Shown: positions 29,701 to 45,011 of the stretch, in pieces
Numbering within the stretch: position 1 is the first letter of the stretch
Layout of the letters: each line of letters starts with the position of its first letter
NCBI GenBank assembly: GCA_016215025.1
Contig: JACRMI010000139.1
Location: 20,862 to 84,861 of the forward strand
DNA: 64,000 nt
Direction of reading: 5' to 3'
From: Chloroflexota bacterium
GTDB taxonomy: Bacteria; Chloroflexota; Anaerolineae; UBA4142
Translations under genes and position numbers: made by a program
The notes under the pieces: model-generated
Databases searched by the model: none
Told to the model about the DNA's origin: nothing
What the model saw: the letters and a program-made list of their open reading frames with translations, nothing else

Positions 29701-30013
29701 GGTGCGGATTCAGCGTGAACGGATTGAACGGATTGCCATCGATTTTCGAGATGACGCCGTTCACGAGTTTGACTTTGATGCCGCAGTTGGTGTTGCACTG
29801 TTGGCACACGCTGTAGATAATGTTTTCCGGTTTTGCGAGTGCATAACCTTGCTCTGCCGCTGCGCTCACGACGTTTCCTTCCAGCACATCCCAGGCGAGA
29901 TTAAGTGACGATGCAAACGTCGCCGAGCCGCCAAGGAATGCGCCAATCTTTAGAAAATCGCGACGCGTGATATTGGTGATGGGTTCATCGAGAATTTTAT
30001 TTTGGTCATTCAT
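26738..30013 (-). CDS. Molybdopterin (Mo/W-bisPGD) oxidoreductase catalytic subunit, Tat-exported, Cys-ligated Psr/Phs/Ttr/Arr-type; substrate unknown
   Basis: Tat signal [21 protein letters not shown]-terminal FS0 motif [12 protein letters not shown]...CPKAHAG. Probable Mo ligand in [10 protein letters not shown]. About 1090 aa. Start taken at the second ATG of ATGACCATGAAT (AGGAG sits 8 nt upstream); the ORF is open to 30082. Confidence 0.9.
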
Positions 30014-30103
30014 GGTCATTTCTCCTGTCGTGATGTGTCGTGTGACGTTGGGCGGGTGACGCGAGTTAGCATGTGCCGTCACTCGTCACTTGTCACGCGT
30101 CAC

Positions 30104-31348
30104 TCATTCTGCCTGCGTTCCCGCGCCGCTTGACTCGCGCACAATCGGCAGGACTTGATAACCGATGAGGAACGCGAGCAAGCCCGCTGAAATCGCCCAG
30201 ACTTGGACGAGCCATTCGGTCAGTGTTGGCAAATAATCAAAGCTCAAGCCCGGACCCGTAAACGCTTCTGCCAAGCCGTTGATCTCCGGTACGGCAAGAC
30301 CTGGGATGACGATGTTGAGGCGTACGGTGAAAAACGTGACGGCGATCAACAAACCAGCCACCGCAACCCAGAACGCCGATTTGGGTTGGAAAATCATGAG
30401 CAAAAGGGGAACGACGACGCCCAGTCCGATGTGTACGCCCCAGAATACCCAGGCATAGGGTCCGAACAAAACGAGTTTCATGCTTGCCACATCGGCCGGG
30501 ATTGCAGAATACAATCCGATAGAATACTCTGCCCATTCGAGCATCACATCGAACAACAACAGTCCAAGCGCAATCTTGCCCAGGAAGAGCACTGTGTCTC
30601 TGTGTTCCGCGCTGCCCTGATTCGGTCCAAAGACATAAGTGACAAAGGTGAGCAGCGCACCGCCACTGCACAACGCGCCGACGAGGAACATGATCGGCGT
30701 CAAGCCGGTGTTCCAGTAGGGCCGCGCGCCGACAACGCCGAACAGTGCGCCGACGCCGCCGTGAAACGCAATCGCGAGCGGCACACCCAATGTGCCCAGC
30801 ACGCGCAGAACACTTTTATCGCGTGCGAGTTTAGCTGGGGAAACATCTTTTTGTCCAAAAGTGAGTATCCCTGCCACTTTACCGGCGAAATCTTTGCGTG
30901 TGCTCCACGCAACAAAATCCGCCCGCAACGCGAACCACAGCTCGGCAAGCAGCAAAACAAAGTATGCCGTGTAGAGCCAGATCATCCAGCCCATCATCGA
31001 GCCAAAATTCGTCGCGAACATCAAGCGCCACGCGCGTTCGGGACGACCCAGGTCGAGAAAGACACTGAACATTGCCACCGCGAGTGAAATGACGGCGGTG
31101 AACAACGCAAGCTTGCCAATCTTTTCCAGCTTCTTGATGCCGAATGCGTATACGAGCGCGGAAATAAGGAACGCGCCCGCGGAAATGCCGACGAGATAAA
31201 TGTACGCCCCGATCCACAAACCCCATGGGATGTAACTGCCGTAACTTACATTCATGTGTCCCGTCGCAAAGCGGTCGTACAAGCCGTACGCTCCGGCGAC
31301 GAATCCAATGATCGCGACAAGCCAGAGTAATCGTTTCAAGTTTTTCAT
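30104..31348 (-). CDS. NrfD/PsrC-family quinol-interacting membrane anchor subunit
   Basis: 414 aa with about 10 TM spans, located between the 4x[4Fe-4S] subunit and the Mo subunit. The N-terminal YIPWGLWIGAYIYLVGISAGAF segment is typical of NrfD-like proteins. Confidence 0.85.
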   Translation of the reverse strand: MKNLKRLLWLVAIIGFVAGAYGLYDRFATGHMNVSYGSYIPWGLWIGAYIYLVGISAGAFLISALVYAFGIKKLEKIGKLALFTAVISLAVAMFSVFLDLGRPERAWRLMFATNFGSMMGWMIWLYTAYFVLLLAELWFALRADFVAWSTRKDFAGKVAGILTFGQKDVSPAKLARDKSVLRVLGTLGVPLAIAFHGGVGALFGVVGARPYWNTGLTPIMFLVGALCSGGALLTFVTYVFGPNQGSAEHRDTVLFLGKIALGLLLFDVMLEWAEYSIGLYSAIPADVASMKLVLFGPYAWVFWGVHIGLGVVVPLLLMIFQPKSAFWVAVAGLLIAVTFFTVRLNIVIPGLAVPEINGLAEAFTGPGLSFDYLPTLTEWLVQVWAISAGLLAFLIGYQVLPIVRESSGAGTQAE

Positions 31349-31423: not shown

Positions 31424-32215
31424 CTAGACGAGGTAGTATACCTTCGGCTCGGTGCCCATTTCTTCTTTGAGGCGTGTTACATTCGTCGAGCCGAGCAGAT
31501 TGGACACAAGCGCGTCAGGATCATTTGCATCGCCAAAGTACGTCGCGCGACCGATGCACGTGGTCGTGCACGCGGGCAACATGCCTGCATCCAAGCGATG
31601 ATTGCAGAATTGGCATTTGCGCGCGTTGCCAATCGGCGATTCGTCAGCTTTGCGTTCCCAGGCGACGCCGTATTCGTAGGATGGTAATTTTTCGTACGAT
31701 TCTACTTTGGGGCGACCCGTGACGGACGGCGGTGTGCCGGGCGTGCCTTCGAGGTACGAGCGTCCCGCGTCGAACGTGCGCGCGGAGTACGGGCACGCGG
31801 TCAAGCAATAGCGGCAACCGATGCAGTCGTTGTAGTTGATCGCGACGATGCCATCCGGTCGCTTGTAGGTTGCGTTGACGGGGCAGACGTTGACGCACGG
31901 TGGATTATCGCACTGCATACATGGACGTGGCACAAAGCGGCGCGTCACATTCGGGTACGAGCCGATTTCTTCTTCCATCACCGGGCGATACACCACACCG
32001 GGCGGTAGTTTGTTTTCGACAACGCACGCGATCGTGCAAGACGAGCAACCGACGCATTTGCGTAGATCGAGCACCATCACCCAGCGGCGATCTTTGGCAT
32101 CCTTTTTGAGCGCGCGACGCAAGTCCTCTTGCATTCTGAGGAGCGGGTCTTCGGGTGTTCCGACCGGCGCTGCGCCGACGATGAACTGAGCGAGTTCTTG
32201 GGTCGTGACAGGCAT
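31424..32215 (-). CDS. Four-cluster [4Fe-4S] ferredoxin-type electron-transfer subunit (DmsB/PsrB/TtrB-like)
   Basis: Cys groups [37 protein letters not shown] and [20 protein letters not shown]. Start ATG 32215 has a GGAGGTAAG SD (the ORF is open to 32401). Confidence 0.9.
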
Positions 32216-32230
32216 CTTACCTCCTTGAAA

Positions 32231-32270
32231 ATAAAAAAAGCCAGAGACAACTTTACCGTAGGTCTCTGGC
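32231..32270 (-). promoter_or_regulatory. Hairpin plus U-run immediately 5' of the Fe-S subunit SD (attenuator-like leader)
   Basis: On the minus strand, gccagagac / gucucuggc forms a 9-bp stem with a 13-nt loop, followed by uuuuuuuauuuu, then CAAGGAGGUAAGAUG. Confidence 0.5.
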
Positions 32271-32392
32271 TTGATTCTAACTTCAGGGTAGCCGATTTTC
32301 CAGCAGGGAAACCCTGTTCCAATTGGTACAATGCAAGGGAAATTCCTACAATTTCCCCAAATCTGAAGGGGAAAACCTGACAAGAAAAAATC

Positions 32393-32425
32393 GCGGACCA
32401 AGTCCGCGATTTTTTCTCAATCGGA
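32393..32425. terminator. Bidirectional rho-independent terminator
   Basis: atcgcggac / gtccgcgat 9-bp stem with a 3-nt loop, flanked by aaaaaa and tttttt. Confidence 0.75.
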
Positions 32426-32496
32426 GAAAGCTGTTTTCTTGTCTGAGAGCCGCAAAACGTATCGAGAATGTCCAGAAAACGGGTTTCTGATCGAGT

Positions 32497-32661
32497 TTAT
32501 GGTTTGTGTAAGACGGTCTTTGGTGTCTCTACGGGTTTGACTTGGGGAACCTCGACATCTAGCTCACCGGCCAAACCTTTGACCGCGAGTGCAAAGCCGA
32601 TAAAGATCAACGTGCCAAGTAACGTGTCTCCGACCAAAACCCAAATTGCAAAGTTTTCCAT
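32497..32661 (-). CDS. 54-aa single-TM miniprotein (below the ORF-track cutoff)
   Basis: Hand translation gives MENFAIWVLVGDTLLGTLIFIGFALAVKGLAGELDVEVPQVKPVETPKTVLHKP. A strong SD is present (GGAGGTTAAAATG). It is followed by the 32393-32425 terminator. Confidence 0.4.
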   Translation of the reverse strand: MENFAIWVLVGDTLLGTLIFIGFALAVKGLAGELDVEVPQVKPVETPKTVLHKP

Positions 32662-32800
32662 TTTAACCTCCGTGTCTTGCGTTTATGAATTGTCGCTTGA
32701 CCGGAACTATACAACCAATGCCTGGCTGATACAATCACTTTTCCCGTGATTTAGCATACTGCAAGTTAGGTATTTGGCATACTGTGTTCAAGGTATGGCT

Positions 32801-33448
32801 TTAGTTGGCTGAATCGATCAACCCGTGTTTCATGGCATATCTAATCAGTTCGGTGCGATTGTGTAAATTGAGTTTTTGCATGATGTTGGCGCGATGCGTC
32901 GCCACGGTGAATGGGCTGAGCACCAACTTGTCCGCGATTTGCTGATTGGTCAACCCTTCCGCAATGAGCGCAAGAATTTCGCGCTGACGCGGCGTCAGTT
33001 CTTCGATTTGTTGTTTCTCCGGCGCGCTGGCGCGATTGAGGTAGTTGCTCACCAGATGCTTGGCTGCCGAGGGCTGCAAATAAACTTGGCCACCTTTGAC
33101 AGCTTGGAGCGCAAGTACAAGTTCGCTCACGTCCGCGCCTTTTAAAATATAGCCCGATGCGCCGACCGCGAGCGCGCGAAACAAATAATCCGCATCGTCA
33201 TGGACCGTGAGCAACAACACATTCACCTCTGGCAGAACGCGTTTGATTTGCGCGGTTGCTTCCAAGCCGTCGAGATCAGGCATTCCAATATCCATCAGAA
33301 CGATGTCCGGTTTGAGCGCACACGTCTGCGCAACTGCTTCTGTGCCATTCGCAGCTTCGCCTACCACTTGCAAATCGGTTTGTGTTTCAAGCAGCGCGCG
33401 AATGCCACGTCGAACGAGCGTGTGGTCATCGGCAAGCACAATTTTCAT
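32801..33448 (-). CDS. NarL/LuxR-family response regulator (triplet 1)
   Basis: Receiver domain with DIVLMDIGMPDLDG. C-terminal LuxR HTH: LTPRQREILALIAEGLTNQQIADKLVLSPFTVATHRANIMQKL. Confidence 0.9.
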   Translation of the reverse strand: MKIVLADDHTLVRRGIRALLETQTDLQVVGEAANGTEAVAQTCALKPDIVLMDIGMPDLDGLEATAQIKRVLPEVNVLLLTVHDDADYLFRALAVGASGYILKGADVSELVLALQAVKGGQVYLQPSAAKHLVSNYLNRASAPEKQQIEELTPRQREILALIAEGLTNQQIADKLVLSPFTVATHRANIMQKLNLHNRTELIRYAMKHGLIDSAN

Positions 33449-33476
33449 GTTGGGCTATATCTCCAAATTGTAAGCG

Positions 33477-35339
33477 TTACGTCGGAATCTCTACCTGGAC
33501 GCGCGTCCCACTTGCTGCGCGACTGTCGATCTCCAATCGTCCACCCACCAATTCCGCGCGCTCGCGCATGCCAAGCAACCCCATCGTGCCGGCGCGTGAT
33601 GCGCTGATGGTATCGAATCCTATACCGTCATCTTCGACGAGGGCAGCAATGCGACACGTTTCAAAACGCAATACGATGGTCACGTGGTTGGCGTGCGCGT
33701 GTTGCACGATATTGTTCACGGCTTCTTGCACGATGCGAAAGAGCGCGGTCTCGCTCTGCGATGCGAGTCGTCGCCGCGCGCCATGAACTTGGAAATCGAG
33801 CGCGAGTTTCGCCGTCGCACACGCGCGCTCCGCGAAACTTCGCAAGGCGGGCGCGAGACCGGCATCGTCGAGCACGCTGGGACGCAAGTCAAACATCAAT
33901 TGGCGGGTTTGATCGAGAATTTGCGATGCCAGAATGCGGGTCTCGGTCAGGCGGGCGTGCGTCGGTGCATCGTTCGCAAGCGTTTGCTCGTGCGTCTGCA
34001 AGCCGACGATCAACGCCGTCAGACTCTGCGCGAATTCGTCGTGCAGTTCGCGCGCGATCCGTTTGCGTTCCTCTTCCTGCGCTTGGATCACATGGTCGAG
34101 CAGTTGGCGATGGAATTGCTCGCGCCGCTGAGCTTGAGCTAGTTCGAGATTCTCAATGGCTAAACCGATCTGTTGTCCCATCGCCGTGAGGAGACGCAGA
34201 AGGTCGGCTCCAAAATAATCTGCATCTGCGCACGCTAGATGCAAAGCGCCCCACCCACGCGCGCGTGATACGAGCGGAACTAACGCATGGTAGGCGCGCG
34301 GCGCGAGCGTAGCGCAGATTTGACCGTCGTGCGCGACACAGGCTGCGCTGCGCATATCGCACGCGCAATCACACGAGGCAAGTTGCGCAGCGAGTTCAGG
34401 GGATACTTGACGTGTTGCGAGCACACTCAAGTTTTCGCCGTCGCGCAATACAATCCAGCCCATCGTAAGATTCGTGACCCGAAGCGTTTCGTCGAGCGCG
34501 CTGGTCAAGAGCGCGTCCACATCGGCGCTGTGGCTGATCGCTGTAGCGAGCGTGTTTAGCGCTGCAAGCTCTTCGTTGCGTTCGCGCAATTGCGCGTTCG
34601 ACGTTTGCAGTTCACCCTGGGAACGCGCGAGCGCGTGCGTCATCGCGTTGAATGAATTGCCAAGCTGCGCGATCTCTTCTTGTCCGGCAATCGGCGCGAC
34701 GGGTGTGAAATCGCCGCGGGCAACCGCACCAGTCGCCGCAACCAGCTTTTCGAGCGGACGCGCCAGCACTCGCGCGAGCAAATATGCAGTGATGAAAACG
34801 GGAAGCAAACTCAATAGGGTCACGAGCATGAGGTTCCACGTATGGCGATCAATATCTGCGTTCATCGCGCGTTCGGACATGCCGACCCGCACCACACCAA
34901 TCTTGCCTTCGAGTAATGGCGCGGCGACATCGAGCACAAAACCTTCCTCGGTGCTGATGCGCTGCAAGTGATTTTTCCCAGCGACGGCGACACGATTGGC
35001 CGCGACGATTCCTTTGGGGACGCTGCGTCCGAAACTATGCGCGAGAACGCGGTCGTTCGCGTCGAGGACGAGAATGTAACGCAGGTCGGGATTGTTGAGC
35101 AGCGCATCGCTGATCAATTCGTTTAGGCGAAACAGGTCGTCGGTCAACACCACGTCGGTCGCATATGCGGCGAATGCAGACGCAGTCGCCACACTCCGCT
35201 GGTCGAATTGTTCGCGCGCGAAGGATTCGACTTCGGCGCGATTCAAGTACGTGCGAATCAAGCCCAACCCAAGCGTGAGCAACAACATCGCGCTGACAAG
35301 TTGAAAGGAGAGACTGGAGAAGCGAAGCCAACGCATCAT
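33477..35339 (-). CDS. NarX-type sensor histidine kinase: periplasmic domain, HAMP, Cys-rich GAF, HisKA_3, HATPase (triplet 1)
   Basis: Two TM spans flank a ~150-aa periplasmic domain. HAMP motif (PLEKLVAATGAVARGDF). GAF with SCDCACDMRSAACVAHDGQIC. H-box RIARELHDEFAQSL. G-boxes DDGIGF and GLLGMRERA. Overlaps the upstream binding-protein gene by 4 nt. Confidence 0.85.
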   Translation of the reverse strand: MMRWLRFSSLSFQLVSAMLLLTLGLGLIRTYLNRAEVESFAREQFDQRSVATASAFAAYATDVVLTDDLFRLNELISDALLNNPDLRYILVLDANDRVLAHSFGRSVPKGIVAANRVAVAGKNHLQRISTEEGFVLDVAAPLLEGKIGVVRVGMSERAMNADIDRHTWNLMLVTLLSLLPVFITAYLLARVLARPLEKLVAATGAVARGDFTPVAPIAGQEEIAQLGNSFNAMTHALARSQGELQTSNAQLRERNEELAALNTLATAISHSADVDALLTSALDETLRVTNLTMGWIVLRDGENLSVLATRQVSPELAAQLASCDCACDMRSAACVAHDGQICATLAPRAYHALVPLVSRARGWGALHLACADADYFGADLLRLLTAMGQQIGLAIENLELAQAQRREQFHRQLLDHVIQAQEEERKRIARELHDEFAQSLTALIVGLQTHEQTLANDAPTHARLTETRILASQILDQTRQLMFDLRPSVLDDAGLAPALRSFAERACATAKLALDFQVHGARRRLASQSETALFRIVQEAVNNIVQHAHANHVTIVLRFETCRIAALVEDDGIGFDTISASRAGTMGLLGMRERAELVGGRLEIDSRAASGTRVQVEIPT

Positions 35340-36250
35340 TTTTTCGATTGTCCGGCGCGAGTTCGCATCGCGCGGACTGAATCGTACAGCGCATCCTCCG
35401 GCGCAGCAAAGCGATCGAACCCTATCTTGGCGAGGATCGCGCGACCGGTATTGTCCGTGTGCATCGACAACAGCGCCGCACGCAACTGAGTTTTCAAGTC
35501 GGGGTCGAGATTCGGACTGACGACGAGCGGTGAACTGCCGTACGGTCCATAACGCGCAAGGATGCGCGTGCGCGCCGGCAGCGGCGAACCGGATGCGACG
35601 AGAAAGTCGAAAACCTGGTTATCTACCGTTGCGCCGTCCACCAAATTCTCCGCCACCGCTTTGATGGAATTGTCATGGCTGTACGTGAAAATGGTGCGAC
35701 TGAAAAACAGATCGGGCGTAGTCTTGAGCTGCAAAAGTTGATCCACCGCGACAAGTCGTCCGGTGTTTGAAAGCGGATCAGAGAACGCAAACGTCTTGCC
35801 GCGCAAATCGGCGAGCGATTTCGCGGGGCTATCGGAGGGGACGATCAAGTAAGCATAGTACACGATCTCGCCTTTTACTTCCGGTACGACGAGGGCTTGC
35901 ATTCCAAATTGCTCTTGCCCTTCGAGGTACGCGTTTGTGCAAACCACCGCCAGCGCCACGGTGCCTTCGCGCACCAGATTATTGATCTCGTCGTAGGTTT
36001 TGCCTTGCACAATCTGCGCCGGGCGATTTAATTGTTGCCCCAGATACGTGGCAAGGTCTTGATAGAGGGTGAGACTCGTGCGCGGCGAATAGACGGGCGC
36101 GATGGCGATTCGGAGAATGTCCGCGTTCACGGAGGCAACTGCTGGAGTCGGCGCGGACGTGTCCAAATCGCCGAGCCGCACGCGTGGCACGTTCGCTTCT
36201 GATGCACACGCTGTTAAAAAGATAAACCAGATCGCGAGGACATTCTTCAT
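35336..36250 (-). CDS. PhnD-family periplasmic oxyanion-binding lipoprotein (triplet 1)
   Basis: Lipobox FLTAC. Also LRIAIAPVYSP...Y..L..YL...L.RP...V...TY.E...L, the FTYSHDNSIKAV motif, and clear paralogy to 38849-39781. Start is ATG 36250, just after the RR2 stop (the ORF is open to 36277). Confidence 0.8.
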   Translation of the reverse strand: MKNVLAIWFIFLTACASEANVPRVRLGDLDTSAPTPAVASVNADILRIAIAPVYSPRTSLTLYQDLATYLGQQLNRPAQIVQGKTYDEINNLVREGTVALAVVCTNAYLEGQEQFGMQALVVPEVKGEIVYYAYLIVPSDSPAKSLADLRGKTFAFSDPLSNTGRLVAVDQLLQLKTTPDLFFSRTIFTYSHDNSIKAVAENLVDGATVDNQVFDFLVASGSPLPARTRILARYGPYGSSPLVVSPNLDPDLKTQLRAALLSMHTDNTGRAILAKIGFDRFAAPEDALYDSVRAMRTRAGQSKK

Positions 36251-36258
36251 TAATGTAT

Positions 36259-36918
36259 TTACTCTTCCATCATCCAACCGGCTTGAATTGCGTACCGTAC
36301 GAGCGCGGCGCGGCTTTTGAGACCCAGTTTTTCCATGCCGCGCGCGCGGTAGCTTTCGACGGTTTTGACGCTGAGGGCAAGCTGCTCGGCGATTTCTTGA
36401 TTCGTGTGACCCAGGGCGACCAGTTTCAAAACCGCGCCTTCACGTTCGCTCAGATCAATCGGCGCAGCATTCGATTCATTCGCCGGCAACATTCTATCCA
36501 GCAACACTTTGGTGTGCGAAGGATGGATGTACACATTGCCGCGCATCACCGCGCGAATCGCCGAAATCAGTTCGGCGTCGGCTGCGCTTTTGGGACAATA
36601 ACCCGCCGCGCCGGATTCCAATGCGCGTTTGAGGTATCCTTCCTCTTCGTGCATCGTCAGCACCAACACGCGCACATTCGGTTGAGCGCGGCGAACGTGT
36701 TGCAGCACTTGGAGACCATCGCTCTTGGGCATCGAAATGTCGAGGAGAAGCAAGTCGGGCGATTGCTCGCGGACAGCTTTGATGGCTTCGGCTCCATTCG
36801 TCGCTTCACCGACGACGATTAGATCGTCTTGCGCGTTCAGGAGCATTTTCAAACCGGAGCGCAAGACGGAGTGATCGTCGGCAATAATGATTCGCGTTTT
36901 ATTCATTGATTGGCTCAC
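36259..36918 (-). CDS. NarL/LuxR-family response regulator (triplet 2)
   Basis: Receiver domain with DLLLLDISMPKSDG. C-terminal LuxR HTH: LSEREGAVLKLVALGHTNQEIAEQLALSVKTVESYRARGMEKL. Confidence 0.9.
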   Translation of the reverse strand: MSQSMNKTRIIIADDHSVLRSGLKMLLNAQDDLIVVGEATNGAEAIKAVREQSPDLLLLDISMPKSDGLQVLQHVRRAQPNVRVLVLTMHEEEGYLKRALESGAAGYCPKSAADAELISAIRAVMRGNVYIHPSHTKVLLDRMLPANESNAAPIDLSEREGAVLKLVALGHTNQEIAEQLALSVKTVESYRARGMEKLGLKSRAALVRYAIQAGWMMEE

Positions 36919-38852
36919 TGAATCGGAATTTCCACAAACACGCTGCTGCCTTTACCCAACGTGGACTCGATCTTTAATTGTCCGCCGACGAGTTCGGCGC
37001 GCTCGCGCATCCCATGCAATCCCAGTTTCGTTTCATCTTGCGCCGATTCAAGAATCGCGCGCACGTCAAAGCCGCGTCCATCGTCTTCCACAATCGCGAC
37101 GACTGCCGCGCGTTTGCGTTCGACGACGATGCTGACGTTCTTGGCGTGCGCATGTTTGGCAACGTTGGTCAAGGCTTCTTGGATGATGCGATAGAGCGCT
37201 AGTTCGATTTCTGAAGTCAAACGAGTATCGTATTGGAAACCGGTCATTTGCAAATCCACGCCTAATCCATAGTTGGCGCGATAATTCAACGCATAGCGTT
37301 CAAGCGCGGCGGCGAGACCCAAATCGTCGAGTGCTGCCGGTCGCAATTCGCGCGCCAAGCGTTTAACTGATTCGAGCGTTTGCGCCGCAATTTCGCGGAG
37401 CGCATCCAGCCGCGTGCGTGTCGTCAGTTCGCTCGTATCGCCGGCAGCGCGCAAGCCGACCATCAACGATGTGATCGCCTGCCCGGTATCGTCGTGCAAT
37501 TCGCGTGCGATGCGTTTGCGTTCCTCCTCTTGTGCGCCGATCACTTTTTCGAGTAATTGTCCACGCACGCGTTCTTTCTCGCGTAGATCATCCCAGAGGC
37601 GCGCGTTCTCGACGGCGATGCCCAGTTCTTGTCCAACCGCTTCGAGCAGTTTCACTTCGTCCGGACTAAACGCATTCGCATCGCCGCTTGCCACACCCAG
37701 GACACCCAGCACGCGTTCGTGCGATACAATCGGCACGGTCACGTGCGAGGTGATGGTGCGCGCTTCACGCAAGGGACAGCGTTCGGGCAGAGGCGAAACG
37801 ACGACCGACTGTTTGTTCGTAATGGCGACGGTGCAAGGACAACCGTGCAAAGCCGTTTCCGCTTCGCGCAATCCGAGTTCGTGGGGCAAGCCGATCCACG
37901 TGGTCAATTCGATTTGTCCGCTTGCATGGTCGCGCAAAAAGGTCCAGCTCGCGGGCAGATCGAGCGAATCGAGCAATGCGCGTAAAGATCGGTCGAGTGT
38001 TTCGCCGAGTGGCGCGGGCGCATTCACCGCATTCGCCACTGCGTTCAGCGCGGCGAGTTCGCGATTGCGCCGCAAAATCGCGCGCTGGCTCGCATCCAGT
38101 TCGGTGGTCATGCGATTAAACGCCGTCGACAACTTGCCGATTTCGTCGTCGCCCCATTGCGGCGCTTGGCGTGTGAGGTCGCCGCGCGCAACCGCTTGCG
38201 TCACGTCAACCAGCGTCAAGATCGGACGCGTCAGAATGAGTGTGAGCAAATACGCTGCGCCCACGCCCAGAAGCGAAACCATCATCGTCGTCAAAAGCAT
38301 TTGCGAGGTCAGGTCGTTCACGGCGCGATGAACGCTGGCTTCGGTCAAACCGATGCGGGCAATCCCGGCGCGGCCCTCAAAGATCGGCACGGCAATATCG
38401 TGAATCACACCTTCGTCGCTTTGCAACAAGACGCTGTGAGCGCGCTCATCCGACGTCACGGAATTTTTCTCCGCCAGGCCGCGCGGGAATCCTCCATCGA
38501 AGGAATGAACCAAGACGCGATTGTTGGCGTCGAGGATAAAGGCGTAGCGCAGATCGGCGTTATTTTGAATTGTATCTTGGAGAAGCTCATGCAGAGCATA
38601 CGTGTTGTTGATGAGAATAAAATCGGTAGAATGCGCGGCGACATCGCGCGCGATCGAAACGCTGCGCTCTTGGAGTTGAGCGAGCAAGGCGTTGGTCATA
38701 TTGACGCGTACTTGCCACGTCGCGCCCAAGCCAAGCAAAAGCACCAAGGCGAGAACGATGCCCATGATCTTGGCACGAATGCTGGGACGGAGTAACCACG
38801 CGCGCAGATCGTGCCTCAGTTGTTGACTTTTCGAATCCTCGGGTTGAATCAT
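36915..38852 (-). CDS. NarX-type sensor histidine kinase, paralog of 33477-35339 (triplet 2)
   Basis: Same architecture as the triplet-1 kinase. HAMP motif (PILTLVDVTQAVARGDL). GAF with GCPC...(18)..C. H-box RIARELHDDTGQAI. 4-nt overlaps with both neighbours. Confidence 0.85.
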   Translation of the reverse strand: MIQPEDSKSQQLRHDLRAWLLRPSIRAKIMGIVLALVLLLGLGATWQVRVNMTNALLAQLQERSVSIARDVAAHSTDFILINNTYALHELLQDTIQNNADLRYAFILDANNRVLVHSFDGGFPRGLAEKNSVTSDERAHSVLLQSDEGVIHDIAVPIFEGRAGIARIGLTEASVHRAVNDLTSQMLLTTMMVSLLGVGAAYLLTLILTRPILTLVDVTQAVARGDLTRQAPQWGDDEIGKLSTAFNRMTTELDASQRAILRRNRELAALNAVANAVNAPAPLGETLDRSLRALLDSLDLPASWTFLRDHASGQIELTTWIGLPHELGLREAETALHGCPCTVAITNKQSVVVSPLPERCPLREARTITSHVTVPIVSHERVLGVLGVASGDANAFSPDEVKLLEAVGQELGIAVENARLWDDLREKERVRGQLLEKVIGAQEEERKRIARELHDDTGQAITSLMVGLRAAGDTSELTTRTRLDALREIAAQTLESVKRLARELRPAALDDLGLAAALERYALNYRANYGLGVDLQMTGFQYDTRLTSEIELALYRIIQEALTNVAKHAHAKNVSIVVERKRAAVVAIVEDDGRGFDVRAILESAQDETKLGLHGMRERAELVGGQLKIESTLGKGSSVFVEIPIQ

Positions 38853-39781
38853 TGGGCGACATTCACCTGCAATTCGAGCGCGCGCGCTGAATCGTAGATG
38901 CGATCAGAGACGAGAACGAATCGTTCAATCTGCAAGTTTCGCAAAATCGCCGTGCCTTCCGAATCGCTGTTCGCTTGCAACAAAAGTTCGCGCAGCGTTT
39001 CTTTTAATTGTGGACTGAGATTCGGATTAACCACAACGGGTGGAATGCCGAACGCCGGCGACCGATGAATGATGCGGGTGCGTTGTGCGATGGTCGAGTC
39101 GCGCGCCACAAAATAATCGTACACTAAACTGTCCACGCTCGCGCCATCGGCAACTTTGTTGGTCACCGCCTTGATTGCGTTGTCGTGACTGTAGGTGAAA
39201 AAGAGGCGTGCAAAAAATGCTTCCGGTGAACCGTCGAGGGAACGCACCAGTGAGGTGGGATACACGCGTCCCGTGAGTGACATGGGATCGGTGAAGGCAA
39301 ACACTTTGCTTTTCAAGTCGGACATTGAGCGGGCAGAACTATCGGTTGGAACGATCAGCAAAGAATAATACACGGTTTCCCCGTTGACCTGCGGCGCGAC
39401 GAGCAATTCCATACCGAAATCACGCTGACCGATGACATACGCGCTCGTGCAAACAAATGCCAAGTCGACGTCGCCGCTTTTGACAAGGTCATTCACTTCG
39501 GCGTAGGTCTGGCGCTGCACGAGCTGTACCGGGCGATTGAGCTTGTGACTGATGTAGGCGAGCAAGTCGCTGTAACTTTCGACGTTGCCTTTGGGCGAAA
39601 TAACGGCGGCGACGGCGACGCGCAGTGGCTTGGTGTCGTTGGGCGAGTAGGAACTGGTTGACGCCGGATCAATCTCGGAAAATCGAAAATCGGTCTTGGC
39701 TGCCGGATTGCTACACGCCGTCAGAATTAAAACAAGAAAAGCAGCGCACCAGGGTGTTCGGAAAAATAATAAATGCTTCAT
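38849..39781 (-). CDS. PhnD-family periplasmic oxyanion-binding lipoprotein (triplet 2)
   Basis: Lipobox ILTAC. LRVAVAAVISP, FTYSHDNAIKAV. Start MKHLLFF at 39781 has an AAGGAA SD (the ORF is open to 39832). Confidence 0.8.
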   Translation of the reverse strand: MKHLLFFRTPWCAAFLVLILTACSNPAAKTDFRFSEIDPASTSSYSPNDTKPLRVAVAAVISPKGNVESYSDLLAYISHKLNRPVQLVQRQTYAEVNDLVKSGDVDLAFVCTSAYVIGQRDFGMELLVAPQVNGETVYYSLLIVPTDSSARSMSDLKSKVFAFTDPMSLTGRVYPTSLVRSLDGSPEAFFARLFFTYSHDNAIKAVTNKVADGASVDSLVYDYFVARDSTIAQRTRIIHRSPAFGIPPVVVNPNLSPQLKETLRELLLQANSDSEGTAILRNLQIERFVLVSDRIYDSARALELQVNVAQ

Positions 39782-39927
39782 CGATTTAAATTCCTTGGTT
39801 TCTGGTCCTGATTGTCGCATGAATTGGCGCATCAGTCAAAATTGCGTGCTCGCTGTTTGCATTCTGGCATTTGGGGGTCAGAGTCGCGTCTCATTTCAGT
39901 CAAAAGTTCGTTAGCCATTTTTACAAT

Positions 39928-39956
39928 TTGACAAGCGGCGAGTTGGGCAATATAAT
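39928..39956 (+). promoter_or_regulatory. Consensus sigma-70 promoter of the ars operon
   Basis: TTGACA (39928-39933), an exactly 17-nt spacer, then TATAAT (39951-39956). It lies 43 nt before the arsR ATG. Confidence 0.7.
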
Positions 39957-39998: not shown

Positions 39999-40361
39999 AT
40001 GGCTAAAATCGTAACCACTGATCTTGCCAATATTCTAAAGATTCTAAGCGATCCCTCGCGCTTGGCAATTTTCGATCTCTTGATGCAAGGTGTCCAATGC
40101 AACTGTGAATTGGGCGATCAACTCAAGCTGCCAATGAACCTGATCTCTCATCATCTCAAGGTATTGCGCGATGCGGGCTTGGTGGAGGCAGAGCGCGATG
40201 AAACCGACGCGCGCTGGATCTATTACTCGGTGAATCAAAAAGCGATTGAGCAATTGCGCCAACAACTCGATGCGTTTCTGGAGACCAAACGCATCCAACC
40301 GCGTCAACCTGCCTGTGGACCTCGGGTGACTAGCGAAAAAGCGATTGTCACCCGTCCGTAG
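39999..40361 (+). CDS. arsR: ArsR/SmtB-family metalloregulator
   Basis: wHTH: ILKILSDPSRLAIFDLLMQGVQCNCELGDQLKLPMNLISHHLKVLRDAGLV. The CNC motif sits at the position of the As(III)-binding CVC motif. Confidence 0.9.
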   Translation: MAKIVTTDLANILKILSDPSRLAIFDLLMQGVQCNCELGDQLKLPMNLISHHLKVLRDAGLVEAERDETDARWIYYSVNQKAIEQLRQQLDAFLETKRIQPRQPACGPRVTSEKAIVTRP

Positions 40362-40395
40362 TTTTTTTTGCTCGATTACTTCAATGGCTGTTGAA

Positions 40396-41142
40396 ATGAA
40401 ACGCACGAGTCTTTTTCTTTGCACTAGTAATTCTGCACGTAGTCAAATGGCTGAGGCACTGGTGAATCATTTACGCGGCGAGCGATGGCAGGCAGTTTCA
40501 GCGGGCACGCATCCAACGGGCTATGTTCATCCACTCGCCATCGAGGCGTTGAAAGAAGTCGGCATTGATGCGTCGGGCGCGCATTCCAAGTCAGCCGACG
40601 AATTTCGCAATGTGGCTTTCAATGTGGTGGTCACCGTTTGCGATAGTGCGGCAGAAGAATGTCCATTGTGGCTGGGACAAGGTAAGCGAACACATATTGG
40701 ATTTCCTGATCCCGCGCGTGGGACGCTGGAGGATTTTCGATCCGTTCGGGATGGCATGAAGCAGCAGGTGATTGAGTTTTTGGATTCGTTTGAACGGACG
40801 GACACAGACAAAAAATGTTTGAGCTCGCTAATGTCCATCTTTTACTCTCTGTTTTCGCAGAGAGCGAAAGGAGGTAAATCTATGGACATTCAAATTCTGG
40901 GGCCAAGTTGCGCGAATTGCCTCAAACTCGAAGTGCTCGTGATGGAGACACTGACCGAACACGACATTCGTGACGCGCACATCGAAAAAATCACCACGAT
41001 GCGGGAGATGGAACGCCTGATGGCGGGCGAGCCGCCCGGTCTCGTTATCAACGGGCAACTGGTTTGGTCCGGTGGAAAAGAGTTACCGACGCCGGCACAA
41101 ATTGCGGAATGGATTCGCGAGGCGACGGCAACGCCTGCGTGA
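40396..41142 (+). CDS. arsC: Arsenate reductase (LMW-PTP / thioredoxin-coupled type) fused in frame to a small thioredoxin-fold (MTH895/TM0996-like) domain
   Basis: P-loop LCTSNSARSQMAE. Redox Cys pair in VTVCDSAAEECP. C-terminal MDIQILGPSCANCLKLE... is paralogous to 44724-44975. An internal AAGGAGG sits 7 nt before in-frame ATG 40882. Confidence 0.8.
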   Translation: MKRTSLFLCTSNSARSQMAEALVNHLRGERWQAVSAGTHPTGYVHPLAIEALKEVGIDASGAHSKSADEFRNVAFNVVVTVCDSAAEECPLWLGQGKRTHIGFPDPARGTLEDFRSVRDGMKQQVIEFLDSFERTDTDKKCLSSLMSIFYSLFSQRAKGGKSMDIQILGPSCANCLKLEVLVMETLTEHDIRDAHIEKITTMREMERLMAGEPPGLVINGQLVWSGGKELPTPAQIAEWIREATATPA

Positions 41143-41224
41143 GAACGGAACAGTATTCCCGTGATGAAAGCGGGATGAAATGTCGCTTGATGTGACAGGT
41201 CATCCCGCTTTCCTTTTTGAGAGA

Positions 41225-41674
41225 ATGAAAATGATGAATGATTTGCAAGTCACTATTGATAAATTCGTTTTTGGGGTTGCGCGCGGTTATCGCTACAACG
41301 ATGCCGATGTGTGGGCAAAGCACGAAGGCAATCGAGTTCGTGTCGGCTTGACCGATTATCTTCAACAAAAATCGGGCGATGTCGCGTTCGTTAATTCGAA
41401 AGCAGTCGGCACACTGCTCGCCGTGAACGACGAACTTGCTGCGCTCGAAACAATCAAAGTGGACTTGGTCATCCCTGCGCCGCTCGCAGGTAAAATCGTC
41501 GCCGTGAATGAAGCGCTCACGGCGCATCCTGAACTCGTCAACAGTGACCCCTATGGCGCGGGCTGGCTCGTGGAAATCGAGCCGACGAATATCAACGATT
41601 ACGACGCGCTTCTTGATGCCGAAACATATTTGCCGCAGATGCGGACACGCGCAGAATTGGAACGTGAGAAATGA
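41225..41674 (+). CDS. GcvH-family lipoyl-carrier protein (lipoyl-Lys retained)
   Basis: VRVGLTDYLQQKSGDVAFV...LAALETIKVDLVIPAPLAGKIVAVNEAL..HPELVNSDPYGAGWLVEIE aligns with the GcvH core (ESVKA..PVSG.V..VN..L...PEL.N..PY..GW). Start uncertain (41180-41234). Confidence 0.75.
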   Translation: MKMMNDLQVTIDKFVFGVARGYRYNDADVWAKHEGNRVRVGLTDYLQQKSGDVAFVNSKAVGTLLAVNDELAALETIKVDLVIPAPLAGKIVAVNEALTAHPELVNSDPYGAGWLVEIEPTNINDYDALLDAETYLPQMRTRAELEREK

Positions 41675-42069
41675 ACAAGCATGTGATGATTGTGCCGTGC
41701 AGCGGTATCGGCAAAGCGTACGGGAGTGTCGGACGCGACGCGCTGTATCAGGTCATCGAAGAAATGCGCCCCAACGTGACCGCCACGGTTTGCCTTTCGC
41801 TATTGACGCTCGGCGATGCGGATGCGCAAGCGCAAGTGCGCGAGAGTCCGACCATTACCATTGATGGTTGTCCCAAAGCGTGCGCGAAGGTGAATGTCGA
41901 AGCGGCGGGTGGCAAGCCCGTCGCCGAATATCGCGTATTCGATGTCTATCGTGCGCATAAGGAATTGAAAGTACGCTCAGTGAGCAACCTGGGCAAGGCG
42001 GGTCACGAAATGGCACGCATCCTCGCGGAAGAAATCGCGACAAAGGTGGACGAGATCAGTCAACAGTGA
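41671..42069 (+). CDS. DGC-domain (putative zinc-binding) protein
   Basis: VMIVPCSGIGKAYG..., ...CLSLL..., TITIDGCPKACA: the Cys pattern and DGC motif of the DGC family. 4-nt overlap with the GcvH-like gene. Confidence 0.7.
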   Translation: MNKHVMIVPCSGIGKAYGSVGRDALYQVIEEMRPNVTATVCLSLLTLGDADAQAQVRESPTITIDGCPKACAKVNVEAAGGKPVAEYRVFDVYRAHKELKVRSVSNLGKAGHEMARILAEEIATKVDEISQQ

Positions 42070-42119
42070 ACTGTTTACTGTTGACTGTTCACTGCCCACA
42101 GATCACCGGGAGATAAACA

Positions 42120-42821
42120 ATGCCAATCTTGCCGAAGAAAAAAGTCGGACTCATCAGTTGCAGCGGCGAAGAGTTGCCCGCAGGCACGCTCTCACGCATG
42201 GCGACGCTACGCGTATTGGAACAACTACGCCCAAACGATACCGTGACGTTGTGTCTACCGCTCTTTCTCGCGGGCGATGACAAAGAGCGTGCGTTTGCCA
42301 AATTCTATTCAACCATTGCGATTGATGGCTGCGATAAACAGTGCGCCGCGCGCGCAACGGAAAAATATAGCGCGAAACCGACTACAAGCATCATCATCCC
42401 TGAATTTTTGGCGGAGCAAGATTTAGCTGCCCCGAAAACGCGGCGACAGATGGACGCCGCCGGTGAGAGCGCGGCAGATGCGCTCGCGGCAGAGATCGCA
42501 CGCAACGTTGATGAAATCCTTGGCGTGAAACCTGCCGCTGTTGTTGACACCCCCATCACGGAAAGCGAAGGCGTCACCGCGACGTGCAGTTGCGGATCGG
42601 GTATTCCGGTGATGCGCCTGGACATTGCGGGCAAGGGTGTGGAAGTAGTGGCCCTGCCGTTGATTTTTGAAGAGTCGCACAAGGATGGCAAATCGCCTGA
42701 GCAGGTGTTCGACGCGGTCAAGGTTTACAACGTGATTCCGATTGAACTGGAATCTGCCTATCGCGAAGCCATCTTACGTGCTTATGCCGAGTTTGTTCCT
42801 TCGGAGAAACACGTGGAATAA
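42120..42821 (+). CDS. DGC-domain protein with an extra C-terminal CxCG domain
   Basis: VGLISCSGEELPAG, CLPLF, TIAIDGCDKQCA. The C-terminal ~78 aa starting CSCGSGIPVMRLDIAGKGVEVVALPLIFEE... is homologous to the 47334-47645 product. Confidence 0.7.
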   Translation: MPILPKKKVGLISCSGEELPAGTLSRMATLRVLEQLRPNDTVTLCLPLFLAGDDKERAFAKFYSTIAIDGCDKQCAARATEKYSAKPTTSIIIPEFLAEQDLAAPKTRRQMDAAGESAADALAAEIARNVDEILGVKPAAVVDTPITESEGVTATCSCGSGIPVMRLDIAGKGVEVVALPLIFEESHKDGKSPEQVFDAVKVYNVIPIELESAYREAILRAYAEFVPSEKHVE

Positions 42822-42822
42822 A

Positions 42823-43353
42823 ATGCTGCTACAGAGTTATCATCTTAATGTTTTTGCGCCGCCGTGCGAGCCGGGCGCGGAACGGTGGAGCGTCAAAGCC
42901 GCGCTCGATGACGACATTGGTGACGTGTTGCCGTATCTTAATGCAATGCTCAAAGGCGCAATCTACAACCACGCGGCTCACGCGTTAACCTTTCGGATGG
43001 GTGGGCACGCGATGGCAATTCGCCCGCGCGAAATCGCAATTAGCAATCTGCGCGATCAGAATGCGGCGGCGACCGAGGTGCAACATGTCGTAGACATTAT
43101 CAATCGCACCTGGGATCGGCGCACGGAAATTACGCCCAGCATCGAAATGCGCCAACGCCTCAAACCGATGAATGTGTTCAAACTCTTACCTGCAACGAAT
43201 TGCAAGGCATGCGGACAACCGACGTGCTTTACGTTCGCGCTCAAAGTAACGGCGGGTGAAGTTGACATCGAACAATGCGCGTCGCTCTTTACGGAGGCGT
43301 TTCGCGACAAGCGCGAAAAAATGATGTTGCTTTTGGAAAGTAGTGCAAATTAA
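42823..43353 (+). CDS. Fe-S-binding protein with C-terminal RnfB/AcsC-type Cys motif; paralog of 50601-51158
   Basis: LLPATNCKACGQPTCFTFALKV...C matches the putative Fe-S domain (CxxCGxxxCxxFA) seen at RnfB/CFeSP N-termini. ATG 42823 is 1 nt after the previous stop. Confidence 0.65.
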   Translation: MLLQSYHLNVFAPPCEPGAERWSVKAALDDDIGDVLPYLNAMLKGAIYNHAAHALTFRMGGHAMAIRPREIAISNLRDQNAAATEVQHVVDIINRTWDRRTEITPSIEMRQRLKPMNVFKLLPATNCKACGQPTCFTFALKVTAGEVDIEQCASLFTEAFRDKREKMMLLLESSAN

Positions 43354-43356
43354 ATT

Positions 43357-43791
43357 ATGCCGACGACATTCAATTATCACACGACAGTTGCTTGGAAGAA
43401 CGAACACTGGGGGCATCTCGTCTGCGGCAACGGCGCGGCAATGGATTTTTCTGCGCCGCCCGACGCGCACGGACACGCGGGCGTGCTGACACCCGAGGAC
43501 GCGTTCGTCGCCGCTGTAAATACGTGCGTGATGATGATGTTCCTATGGGCGTGCGAGCGGTTCAAGATTCCGCTCGTTTCATATGAATGTTACGCCGAAG
43601 GAACAAAGATTATTGAACTCGACCGCACCGAGTTGTTCACGAAAATCGTCCTTCGTCCCAAAATCCGCGTGAAAGAGTGCGACGAGACACGCGTACGCCG
43701 CGCGCTGGAATCGGCGCAAAAATATTCGCTCGTGGCGAATTCGATCAAATCTGAAATTATACTTGAATCGACGATTGAGGTTGTGCAGTGA
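43357..43791 (+). CDS. OsmC/Ohr-family peroxiredoxin-like protein
   Basis: 144 aa. Has the ..LTPEDAFVAAVNTCVMMMFLWACERF.. motif and the typical OsmC length and Cys placement. Confidence 0.8.
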   Translation: MPTTFNYHTTVAWKNEHWGHLVCGNGAAMDFSAPPDAHGHAGVLTPEDAFVAAVNTCVMMMFLWACERFKIPLVSYECYAEGTKIIELDRTELFTKIVLRPKIRVKECDETRVRRALESAQKYSLVANSIKSEIILESTIEVVQ

Positions 43792-44698
43792 GTTCATCAC
43801 AAGCGCTTTGGGCGCAGGTCAACGAACAAGGACATTTGGTTTTGCCGCCTGAAATGGTCGGTCAGTACGGGTTGAAACCAGGGGCGCGTCTGCGTCTTGA
43901 AAGCGAGACGAACAGCGTTCGCCTGCATCGCCCCGCGCCCAACTTGGCGAAGGTCTACATCTGGGCACTTGCTCCCCAAGGTCATTGAAAATATCAACGC
44001 CTTCCGCGCTTCGCGCCGAACGTGGTCGTATCGCCCCAAGCCCGAAATCGGCATCGCGTTTGTGGCGATGCACCGCAACATCAATGACTTGTCCAAAGTA
44101 ATCGCACTGGGGCGTTCCGTCGGCGCGACGCGTTTTTCCGTCAGCAACGGATTGCCCTATACGGAAGGAATGCGCAAGGAAACGTTGTACGAACGCACCT
44201 TGAAGGACGTTACCTATATGTCGTCGGTGTGGCTGGCCACGCTGAGCTTGCCTAAAAATGGATCTAAACAATTCGACGCGCGAGGCGTTCTTCGCGGCCT
44301 TGTCGAGTGGATGCAGCGTCACTTTTGCAGGAAACAAATTGAGCGGCGCGAACGTTGTGTGTGGTTTTATCGAAGGCGGCGCGATGGCGATTGGCTGGGA
44401 CGGCGGTGTGAGTCCTTGTCCGCCACTGCTGCACAACCACGTCGGTTATCTGCGTCAGCGTAAACGCGCTTTGCACCGACACATCATCGGCAAGGTGAGC
44501 GACCGCGCGTTGATCGATCTCTGGAATGATGCCGACTATGTCGCCTACCGCGAACGGGTGTAAGGATTTGTTTTTGCACCCTGCACCTTTTGTGGTGGTT
44601 GTGAGATGGTGGATGCGAATGAAGAGGATTGCCTCAGTAACAGTTTTCCAGCGTGCGGCGCGTGTCTGTGGGCGCAAGGCGTGATTCAATGTCCGTAA
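43788..44698 (+). pseudogene. Decayed AbrB/SpoVT-domain radical-SAM/SPASM gene (internal deletion, frameshift, in-frame stop)
   Basis: Frame 0 gives the AbrB-like N-terminus (..HLVLPPEMVGQYGLKPGARLRLE..) and stops where the CxxxCxxC core should begin. Frame +1 resumes at ..VIENINAF..IGIAFVAMHRNINDL.. Frame +2 carries the SPASM part (..IGWDGGVSPCP..), an in-frame TAA at 44561-44563, then ..FAPCTFCGGCEM....CGACLWAQGVIQCP. Confidence 0.6.
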
Positions 44699-44723
44699 AT
44701 ATCAATATCTGAAGGAGGTTTGT

Positions 44724-44975
44724 ATGCTTTCCGTTAAAGTGCTTGGTCCGGGATGTGCCAACTGCCAAAAGGTCGAGCAAATCGCTAAAAAGGTGGTTGC
44801 CACATTAAGCGTAGACGCGACTTTTCAAAAAGTCACCACGACGCAAGACATTATGAAGTATCCGATTCTGGCGACCCCGGGACTCGTCATCAACGAAAAA
44901 TTGGTGTGCGCGGGACGGATTCCGACCGAAACCGAAGTGACAACGTGGATTACAAGCGCGCTGGCGACCGCCTAG
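44724..44975 (+). CDS. Small thioredoxin-fold protein (MTH895/TM0996 redox-active disulfide type)
   Basis: 83 aa. VKVLGPGCANCQKVE CxxC motif. GGAGG SD. Located directly upstream of acr3. Confidence 0.8.
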   Translation: MLSVKVLGPGCANCQKVEQIAKKVVATLSVDATFQKVTTTQDIMKYPILATPGLVINEKLVCAGRIPTETEVTTWITSALATA

Positions 44976-45011
44976 CGCAAAAAGAAAATTCTAACCGGAG
45001 GAGTAGAGAAA

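Follow-up and report, generated by a model that had tools for sequence, protein, structure and literature searches.

The binding proteins AioX, ArxX and ArrX have been defined as a sensing subfamily, and arrXSR systems occur in Firmicutes, Epsilonproteobacteria and Chrysiogenetes; in Chrysiogenetes and Firmicutes the regulator ArrR is CitB/FixJ-like, without an AAA+ domain, and a site for it, tcaggtttttccctga, has been proposed upstream of arrA (Badilla et al. 2018, PMC5908839). In Melioribacter roseus, a phosphonate-binding-like protein, a kinase and a regulator, called 'ArrTSR', are encoded directly upstream of a ttr-like locus whose ttrA responds to arsenate, with arsRPCB alongside (Gavrilov et al. 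2017, PMC5492636). Here we analyse a window of 64,000 nucleotides (nt) from the metagenome-assembled genome of a Chloroflexota bacterium of the Anaerolineae type (JACRMI010000139.1, positions 20,862-84,861, forward strand; all coordinates below are window positions), in which two modules of this family, X2-S2-R2 and X1-S1-R1, lie in tandem between a Ttr-like reductase operon and an arsenic (ars) island. The name ArrTSR reportedly originates with Saltikov in 2011, and structures of ArrX from Chrysiogenes arsenatis are said to have been described by Poddar et al. in 2021. In the related kinase TtrS, the PhnD-like binding domain is fused to the kinase. Our reading of the Chloroflexota locus, to which we give a probability of about 0.6, is that the X2S2R2 module switches on the Ttr-like, likely arsenate, reductase, and that X1S1R1 drives a separate gene for a membrane protein of 54 amino acids (aa).

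The preliminary description of this DNA presented a split PhnD-like sensor combined with NarX/NarL-type partners as a new design. This does not stand, because both ArrXSR (PMC5908839) and the Melioribacter ArrTSR-ttr-ars locus (PMC5492636) had already been published; for the same reason, the layout of split sensor, NarL-type regulator, Ttr-clade enzyme and ars genes is not new either. What is new here is the presence of two diverged tandem modules, each apparently with its own target promoter. The basic design is known, and the sensor locus is a real, well-conserved feature that places a known family in a new phylum.

ArrXSR of C. arsenatis resembles the locus in its separate PhnD-fold X, its membrane kinase and its non-AAA+ regulator of the CitB/FixJ-NarL type beside an enzyme with a molybdenum bis-pyranopterin guanine dinucleotide (Mo-bisPGD) cofactor, an arsenic enzyme in C. 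arsenatis and a probable one here, and pocket residues are shared. Its partner, however, is ArrAB, whereas the enzyme here is a Ttr-like B-C-A complex (~1100 aa catalytic subunit, NrfD anchor); moreover, the Chloroflexota host, the lipoprotein nature of X, a kinase GAF domain with a cysteine triad, and two diverged tandem modules with different predicted operators set the present locus apart. The Melioribacter locus, likened here by its published description, has the same three-part layout upstream of a Ttr-clade operon, with an ars locus alongside, but it belongs to Ignavibacteriae and has a single module, and its description mentions neither a second module nor a small membrane-protein gene or an operator analysis. 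AioXSR and ArxXSR share the three-component design, a homologous binding protein (~31% identity to AioX) and the pocket residues, but AioR and ArxR are AAA+ sigma-54 activators whose partners are arsenite oxidases, whereas R1 and R2 are of the NarL/FixJ type. The likeness to TtrSR and NarXL lies in the HisKA_3 kinase core and the LuxR-type regulator, with a NarL-like 7-2-7 architecture predicted for the site of R1; NarX uses a four-helix sensor and needs no binding protein, whereas here a Cache sensor is paired with a separate X.

Six open reading frames (ORFs) occupy the minus strand from 32801 to 39832, in the order X2-S2-R2-X1-S1-R1, as first described:

38849-39781 (ORF to 39832), minus strand: X2, an ArrX-like PhnD-fold lipoprotein sensor (310 aa as called; PF12974, E 4e-59)
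36915-38852, minus strand: S2, a membrane histidine kinase (Pfam sCache_3_2, HAMP, GAF, HisKA_3, HATPase_c)
36259-36918, minus strand: R2, a NarL/FixJ-family response regulator (Response_reg + GerE) with recognition helix KTVESYRARGMEKL
35336-36250 (ORF to 36277), minus strand: X1, a second, diverged ArrX-like lipoprotein sensor (304 aa; PF12974, E 5.5e-63)
33477-35339, minus strand: S1, a paralogous histidine kinase of the same Pfam architecture as S2 (40% identity to S2)
32801-33448, minus strand: R1, a NarL/FixJ-family response regulator (Pfam Response_reg + GerE) with a different recognition helix, FTVATHRANIMQKL

The genes had been said to overlap by 4 nt throughout each triplet. Such overlaps are present at X2/S2, S2/R2 and X1/S1, but a gap of 28 nt (33449-33476) lies between S1 and R1 and one of 8 nt between R2 and X1. 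Because the junctions either overlap or are 8-28 nt apart, the six genes probably form one operon. The identity between paralogues is just 47% for X1/X2, 40% for S1/S2 and 44% for R1/R2, so that, judged by these values, the two modules are an old pair and not recent duplicates. Public gene calls (304 and 310 aa) agree with the starts first assigned to X1 and X2, the X2 call beginning at Met18 of a 327-aa ORF. Both flanks, the Ttr-like reductase operon and the ars island, were confirmed with Pfam and NCBIfam, in keeping with the placement given in the preliminary description.

X1 and X2 were correctly recognised at the outset as PhnD-family lipoproteins, each with a PF12974 match and an L-T-A-C lipobox. 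Among PDB entries, which do not include ArxX and therefore leave it outside the comparison, the top relative of both is ArrX of C. arsenatis (X1, E 4e-51, 36% identity; X2 with 6x6b, E 1.6e-57, 39% identity), followed at lower similarity by AioX (~1e-35, ~31% identity), PtxB (~1e-19) and PhnD (~1e-8). For the predicted PhnD fold of the two proteins, the similarity to the solved ArrX is decisive. The pocket residues are Y110, C128, Y155, S185, T187, H216 and D234 in X2 and Y95, C113, Y140, S170, T172, H201 and D219 in X1; compared with the AioX pocket (Y88, C106, Y131, S161, S163, H192, D210), six of the seven are identical in both proteins and the seventh is changed from Ser to Thr. This pocket includes, in AioX, ArrX and ArxX, a Cys that PhnD lacks (PMC5908839), and the pocket Cys is invariant. 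Since ArrX and AioX far outscore PtxB and PhnD, and since a Pfam scan covering all window ORFs of at least 200 aa except six outside 23-49 kb showed no ABC permease or ATPase, X1 and X2 are best regarded as sensing rather than transport proteins, as had been proposed.

Relatives of X2 are numerous (2870 at E <= 1e-10). In a neighbour-joining tree, X2 falls in a large main clade, and X1 belongs to a small clade with its counterparts from loci L006, L014 and L083, sister to an Armatimonadota X protein (compared loci are labelled L followed by a number, the window locus WIN). X1-type proteins (>=64% identity) form ~19 clusters, on contigs shared with X2-type proteins, and a metagenome scan with X1 yielded only four further true X1-type loci, the rest being 44-56% relatives in mixed contexts.

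The kinases have the periplasmic domain, HAMP, GAF and HisKA_3 first ascribed to them, but to call them 'NarX-type' is mistaken: their sensor domain is of the Cache kind, and the equivalog models for NarX and NarL score far under their cut-offs. The extracytoplasmic region is a single Cache domain (sCache_3_2) and not the four-helix sensor of NarX; two hydrophobic segments flank it in both kinases (in S2 at ~20-51 and 185-218), and the NarX equivalog model, whose cut-off is 578 bits, gives 128 and 97 bits. The cytoplasmic GAF domain of both contains a CxC...(~19 aa)...CP triad, at residues 337-360 of S2 (37773-37844) and 322-343 of S1 (34311-34376). In S2 the triad consists of Cys338, Cys340 and Cys359, the sole cysteines of the protein, and the S1 cluster comprises C323, C325, C327 ... 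C342. The triad cysteines are conserved in 98%, 85% and 98% of 41 kinase homologues, and shorter kinase relatives (~485 aa) have no GAF domain. The triad might serve to bind As(III) or a metal, or as a redox site.

Both regulators consist of a receiver domain (Response_reg) and a LuxR-type helix-turn-helix (GerE), which bears out their description as NarL/LuxR regulators, and Pfam finds no AAA+ or Sigma54_activat domain in either. The NarL equivalog model scores 159 and 144 bits (cut-off 250) and the TtrR model 75-78 bits (cut-off 290). The R2-type helix, KTVE[S/T]YRARGMEKL, is kept in essentially all loci with X2-type modules or operator boxes, even where overall identity is 52-60%. The R1 helix, FTVATHRANIM, is unlike it and was found by regular-expression search in WIN, L014, L002 and L083; in L006, L088 and L089, the R1-type regulator was assigned by overall identity (78-83%) and not by the helix.

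The conservation of the arrangement could be followed in GTDB species-representative genomes, 319 stretches of which encode an X2 relative; the locus counts given here cover the best 80, all of them from Chloroflexota. R adjoins X in 70 of these, and homologues of B, C or A are present in 52, or in 38 of the 50 loci of at least 12 kb. The usual operon is B-C-A-FmdE, on the same strand and just after or just before X-S-R, with FmdE following A in 39/80 loci. The full six-gene layout recurs in L006, L014, L088 and L168, and L089 retains the X1-S1-R1 half, being cut at the contig end; L002 has the order X-S-R-S-R. A different pair of modules lies beside an 873-aa Psr/Phs/Arr-like enzyme in L005 and L085. 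Consideration of L084 and L085 as classical Arr clusters was abandoned, their molybdenum (Mo) subunits scoring 125-288 bits of the 1600 of the ArrA model (NCBIfam).

The reductase operon of the window and its control region comprise the following elements:

32363-32380, 32331-32348 and 32300-32317, minus strand: predicted R2 operator, three same-strand TCAGG-TTTTCCC-type boxes (position weight matrix (PWM) and cross-locus conservation)
32233-32270, minus strand: 5' leader hairpin and U-run between the -10 element and the ribosome-binding site (RBS) of B (conserved structure)
31424-32215, minus strand: B, a TtrB/DsrO-like 4Fe-4S subunit (263 aa; Pfam, NCBIfam)
30104-31348, minus strand: C, an NrfD/PsrC-type membrane quinol-interacting subunit (PF03916, E 2.5e-41)
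26738-30019 (ORF 26738-30082), minus strand: A, a Ttr-like Mo-bisPGD catalytic subunit, exported by twin-arginine translocation (NCBIfam, profile alignment)
25504-26259, minus strand: FmdE-domain protein with a zinc finger, the last gene of the reductase operon (PF02663)

The three boxes are 31-32 bp apart, and the proximal one, CAGGGTTTCCCTG, abuts the -35 element of a TGGAAA-17-TAGAAT promoter (-10 at 32274-32279); the true start of B is the ATG at 32215, as shown by the RBS and the lengths of homologues. In a PWM scan of the entire window, the boxes upstream of B are among the nine best matches, at ranks 1, 4 and 9. At least one box precedes B in 47/53 loci, compared with 13.5% of random windows from the same loci, and at least two precede it in 38/53 (random windows, 1.7%); a pair spaced by 26-38 nt is found in 31/53 loci against 0.4% at random, with a sharp peak of spacing at 31-34 bp. 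Palindrome searches with single patterns in the window alone were not significant, and the significance of the motif comes from cross-locus comparison only. In more distant loci the box takes the form of a clear inverted repeat, TGTCAGG-TTTT-CCCTGACA, and the motif is similar to the ArrR/FixJ site proposed ahead of Chrysiogenes arrA (PMC5908839). The boxes lie within 32216-32500, the first region that had been proposed for footprinting, and provide a bioinformatic regulatory link to the reductase operon; the second proposed target, 26180-26290, finds no support, the PWM scan showing no box upstream of FmdE. The leader hairpin, predicted to be stable, begins a few bases past the -10 element, with its U-run ending shortly ahead of the RBS, and its structure is kept, with varied sequence, in 12 loci (L001, L004, L006, L008-L012, L014, L085, L088, L089); its role may be that of a stabilising stem-loop at the 5' end or of a transcription attenuator.

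Between R1 and this promoter lies a second, separate unit:

32757-32772, minus strand: predicted R1 operator, a NarL-like 7-2-7 inverted repeat, TACCTAA-CT-TGCAGTA (cross-locus co-occurrence)
32497-32661, minus strand: gene for a 54-aa single-pass membrane protein (MENFAIWVLVGDTLLGT..., MENFAIWVLVGDTLLGTLIFIGFALAVKGLAGE...), with a GGAGG RBS, conserved, and with its own promoter and terminator
32385-32410, minus strand: terminator-like hairpin and T-run after the small gene (equivalents in L088, L089, L169 and L012)

The promoter of the small gene, TTGTAT-17-TATAGT (32734-32706), sits downstream of the 7-2-7 repeat, beside which an extra CAGTATG half-site is found at 32778-32784, and the terminator separates the small ORF from the promoter of B. 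The ORF is conserved in L014, L002, L006, L083, L088, L089, L168 and L169, and in L012 it is split over two reading frames. The gene looks unannotated; its product has no Pfam family in a Pfam scan and is represented by only 17 clusters among 5.8 billion proteins, on contigs that also carry X1-type proteins. An equivalent of the repeat, TACTGCG-NN-CNCAGTA, precedes the small ORF in L014, L002, L006, L083, L088, L089 and L169. Repeat and small ORF co-occur with R1-type modules in WIN, L014, L002, L006, L083, L088 and L089, and in L169 the module is on the same contig; L168 shows the small-gene layout of the window. In L012, the small gene has no 7-2-7 site and no R1-type regulator nearby.

Based on the above data, we propose the following mechanism. 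By analogy with the family, the lipid-anchored PhnD-fold X would bind an arsenic oxyanion, most likely arsenate, outside the membrane, and the liganded protein would dock on the sCache domain of its partner S. HAMP and GAF would relay the signal to the HisKA_3 kinase core, from which S would phosphorylate its partner NarL/FixJ-type R. The pattern of co-occurrence suggests that X2S2R2 is the ancestral, widespread module, R2 binding the three boxes and presumably activating, rather than repressing, B-C-A-FmdE, and that X1S1R1 is a diverged module of a narrow subclade, in which R1 would bind the 7-2-7 repeat and drive the monocistronic 54-aa gene. What the sequences themselves show is the gene content, the family membership and the conservation of synteny and of the two DNA motifs; the ligands, the docking of X on S, the pairing of each R with its motif, and activation are inferred.

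Several observations weigh against this reading. ACR3 or ArsC is encoded within 10 kb of X in only 9/80 loci. The XSR modules in L084 and L085 adjoin other Psr/Phs/Arr-type Mo enzymes, so the module is not tied to one enzyme. The PWM scan shows no R2-type boxes upstream of X2, X1 or arsR, and the evidence that pairs R1 with the 7-2-7 repeat, a predicted match, comes from ~8 loci of one narrow clade. It is also reported that pocket residues do not determine specificity for As(III) or As(V), and that the XSR phylogeny tracks the organism tree and not function (Badilla et al. 2018, PMC5908839); for these two reasons, closeness to ArrX is no proof of arsenate binding.

A more elaborate proposal, a two-input, two-output circuit for arsenic respiration with all of its parts acting together, is doubtful as a whole. 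In such a circuit, X2S2R2 may sense external arsenate and switch on the Ttr-like arsenate reductase, X1S1R1 may sense another species (the product arsenite, antimonate, or the competitor phosphate), and the 54-aa protein, driven via the 7-2-7 operator, may tune the reductase or the kinases. The GAF triad could bind As(III) in the manner of ArsR and thereby provide product feedback from inside the cell. If this circuit were true, the Chloroflexota would constitute a large, unrecognised guild of regulated arsenate respirers.

Both triplets had originally been suggested to control the reductase, and one can imagine that they converge on its promoter and sense the same ligand, either redundantly or over an extended range (for example, with high and low affinity for arsenate), the small gene being a leader or accessory in the same transcription unit. 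The identity of the pocket residues in the two X proteins would fit, as would the tight packing of the six genes, probably as one operon, immediately ahead of the small ORF and B. L169, in which the sensor genes lie downstream of FmdE and B is still preceded by the small gene with its 7-2-7 site, points the same way. This convergence is nonetheless unlikely. The recognition helices of R1 and R2 differ at base-contacting positions, two distinct motifs are each conserved, and the terminator hairpin stands between the small ORF and the B promoter; in addition, L083 has an X1-type module and the small ORF beside arsRDAC, with no B-C-A within 10 kb. The original claim therefore survives for R2, whose type is tracked by the boxes before the reductase, but not for R1, whose type is tracked by the other operator, before the small gene.

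The preferred assignment of the B-C-A enzyme to arsenate has to be weighed against a sulfur-oxyanion system, in which B-C-A would be a true tetrathionate or thiosulfate/polysulfide reductase and X a sensor of tetrathionate or thiosulfate, in a split form of TtrS. In NCBIfam, A and B match the TtrA and TtrB models best, the gene order is that of ttrBCA, TtrS itself carries a PhnD-like sensor domain, and most related loci have no ars genes. The scores, however, are low: TtrA reaches 473 bits (E 1.7e-141) against a cut-off of 1750, with ArrA at 111 bits, and TtrB 187 bits against 416. At the equivalog level, the locus thus does not match a true TtrSR-TtrBCA system, the TtrA, TtrB and TtrR scores all lying under their cut-offs and X being a separate gene instead of part of the kinase. 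Subunit A (residues numbered as in the 1114-aa ORF) carries TRRDFLK and HTTVC308, in which Cys308 is the Mo ligand, and has its iron-sulfur (B) and NrfD (C) partners. A short fragment of A gave no matches in the PDB, and it took a profile of 15 homologues to align its W-G278-R279 on R-G-R165-Y of Shewanella ArrA, and HTTVC308 on the Mo-ligand Cys of the ArrA HSSVC. This Gly-Arg (GR) motif is invariant in all 40 complete A homologues; it is reported in all arsenic enzymes (ArrA R165), including Ttr-like As(V) reductases, and reported missing in true Ttr (2026 paper, PMC12949373). Further against a sulfur substrate, X is nearest to ArrX, which in isothermal titration calorimetry bound arsenate (Kd ~1 uM) and phosphate but not tetrathionate or thiosulfate (PMC5908839). 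The window cluster also abuts an ars island, and overall we consider a sulfur-oxyanion system quite unlikely.

The Mo-bisPGD enzyme is accordingly Ttr-like and not an ArrA, with the GR motif of arsenic enzymes and an ars island as its neighbour, and on this evidence B-C-A most likely reduces arsenate. The Ttr homologue of Anaeromyxobacter sp. PSR-1 was reportedly described as an As(V) reductase by Muramatsu in 2020. As far as citing papers relate, Ttr homologues act as respiratory As(V) reductases in Pyrobaculum, where the P. aerophilum enzyme is PAE1265 (Cozen 2009, Haja 2020), and in strain PSR-1; insofar as these sources describe them, the likeness to A is that of a Ttr-clade catalytic subunit with the GR motif. 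In arsenic-rich paddy soil, Chloroflexota ttrA-like transcripts are abundant, and one Chloroflexota amplicon is 44% similar to the PSR-1 enzyme (PMC11462812). The conserved operator, predicted to be that of R2, would wire the Ttr-like operon to an ArrX-type sensor and so provides independent genomic support for an arsenic enzyme.

One or both modules could instead sense arsenite, as AioX and ArxX do, or antimony or selenium species, and the enzyme may then run as an oxidase or on another oxyanion. The pocket is common to AioX, ArxX and ArrX and does not set specificity, two diverged modules invite two ligands, and related XSR modules accompany other Mo enzymes. Yet the match of X1 and X2 to ArrX is much stronger than that to AioX, the regulators are of the NarL/FixJ type like ArrR and not AAA+ sigma-54 activators as in Aio and Arx, and the NrfD-anchored Ttr-like family has been linked only to As(V) reduction, all of which makes this alternative very unlikely. 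That X1 and X2 are ordinary phosphonate or phosphite uptake proteins, lying beside two-component genes by chance of position, is extremely improbable: public annotations do call them phosphonate or PtxB-like binding proteins and both pass the general TIGR01098 subfamily cut-off, but they score 130 and 140 bits with the PhnD equivalog model TIGR03431 (cut-off 261), the PtxB and PhnD structures match 30-50 orders of magnitude worse than ArrX, the invariant pocket Cys is lacking in PhnD, no permease or ATPase was found among the scanned window ORFs, the genes for X and S share 4 nt, and the X-S-R synteny holds in 70/80 species loci.

The two ArrXSR/ArrTSR-family modules are of wider relevance since aquifers, paddy soils and sediments, in which water and rice are threatened by arsenic mobilisation, harbour abundant Chloroflexota. 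The locus supplies testable parts, a pair each of binding proteins, regulators and defined DNA sites, and its tandem diverged modules could serve as a natural system for studying insulation between paralogous three-component pathways.

On the other side of X2, the following region is transcribed divergently:

39999-46109, plus strand: ars island encoding ArsR, an ArsC-thioredoxin fusion, GcvH, two DGC-domain proteins, an FeS protein, OsmC and ACR3 (Pfam, NCBIfam)

A perfect sigma-70 promoter, TTGACA-17-TATAAT (12/12), is located at 39928-39956 on the plus strand, 43 nt upstream of arsR, within the 166-bp divergent region common to arsR and X2, where there is no R2-type box. Genes of the ars type flank the window cluster and several related loci. 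The ArsC fusion (40345-41142, plus strand; 265-aa ORF) joins a low-molecular-weight-phosphatase-type ArsC to a C-terminal thioredoxin-like domain of the MTH895/ArsE family, and its ORF overlaps the end of arsR; L001 has the two domains as separate genes. Between the fusion and ACR3 (41180-43791, plus strand), a GcvH-like protein, two DGC-domain proteins, a small FeS-domain protein and an OsmC-like protein are encoded, and parts of this set recur near X in L047, L054 and L083.

Directly downstream of FmdE (23149-25406, minus strand) lie genes for a Ser/Thr protein kinase (552 aa) and an FHA/winged-helix (Trans_reg_C) protein, whose ORFs overlap by 4 nt. Farther away (51271-62445, minus strand), a kdp region encodes KdpA, a KdpB-like ATPase, KdpD, two more histidine-kinase ORFs and an OmpR-type regulator; one of the histidine-kinase ORFs contains DUF4118 and GAF, domains also of KdpD. 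This region is ordinary context, unrelated to the sensor locus.

Homologues of B-C-A are also found on 72 plasmid records (enterobacterial, IncF-type, 33 from Escherichia), with A 32% identical. On the sole plasmid that was inspected (L167; Citrobacter arsenatis LY-1, NZ_CP037863.1, 8055-13450), which has no XSR sensor, B-C-A is divergent from arsRDABC and keeps the GR motif, and the three genes are annotated merely as DsrO, hypothetical protein and molybdopterin oxidoreductase.

Lastly, the locus tolerates insertions. In L001, a DUF4258/DUF2283 pair (12954-13442) is inserted between S and R, and in L168 (2854-4766 and 10357-11454), the first kinase is broken into a pair of ORFs, and B and C are parted by an insertion sequence (DDE_Tnp_1).

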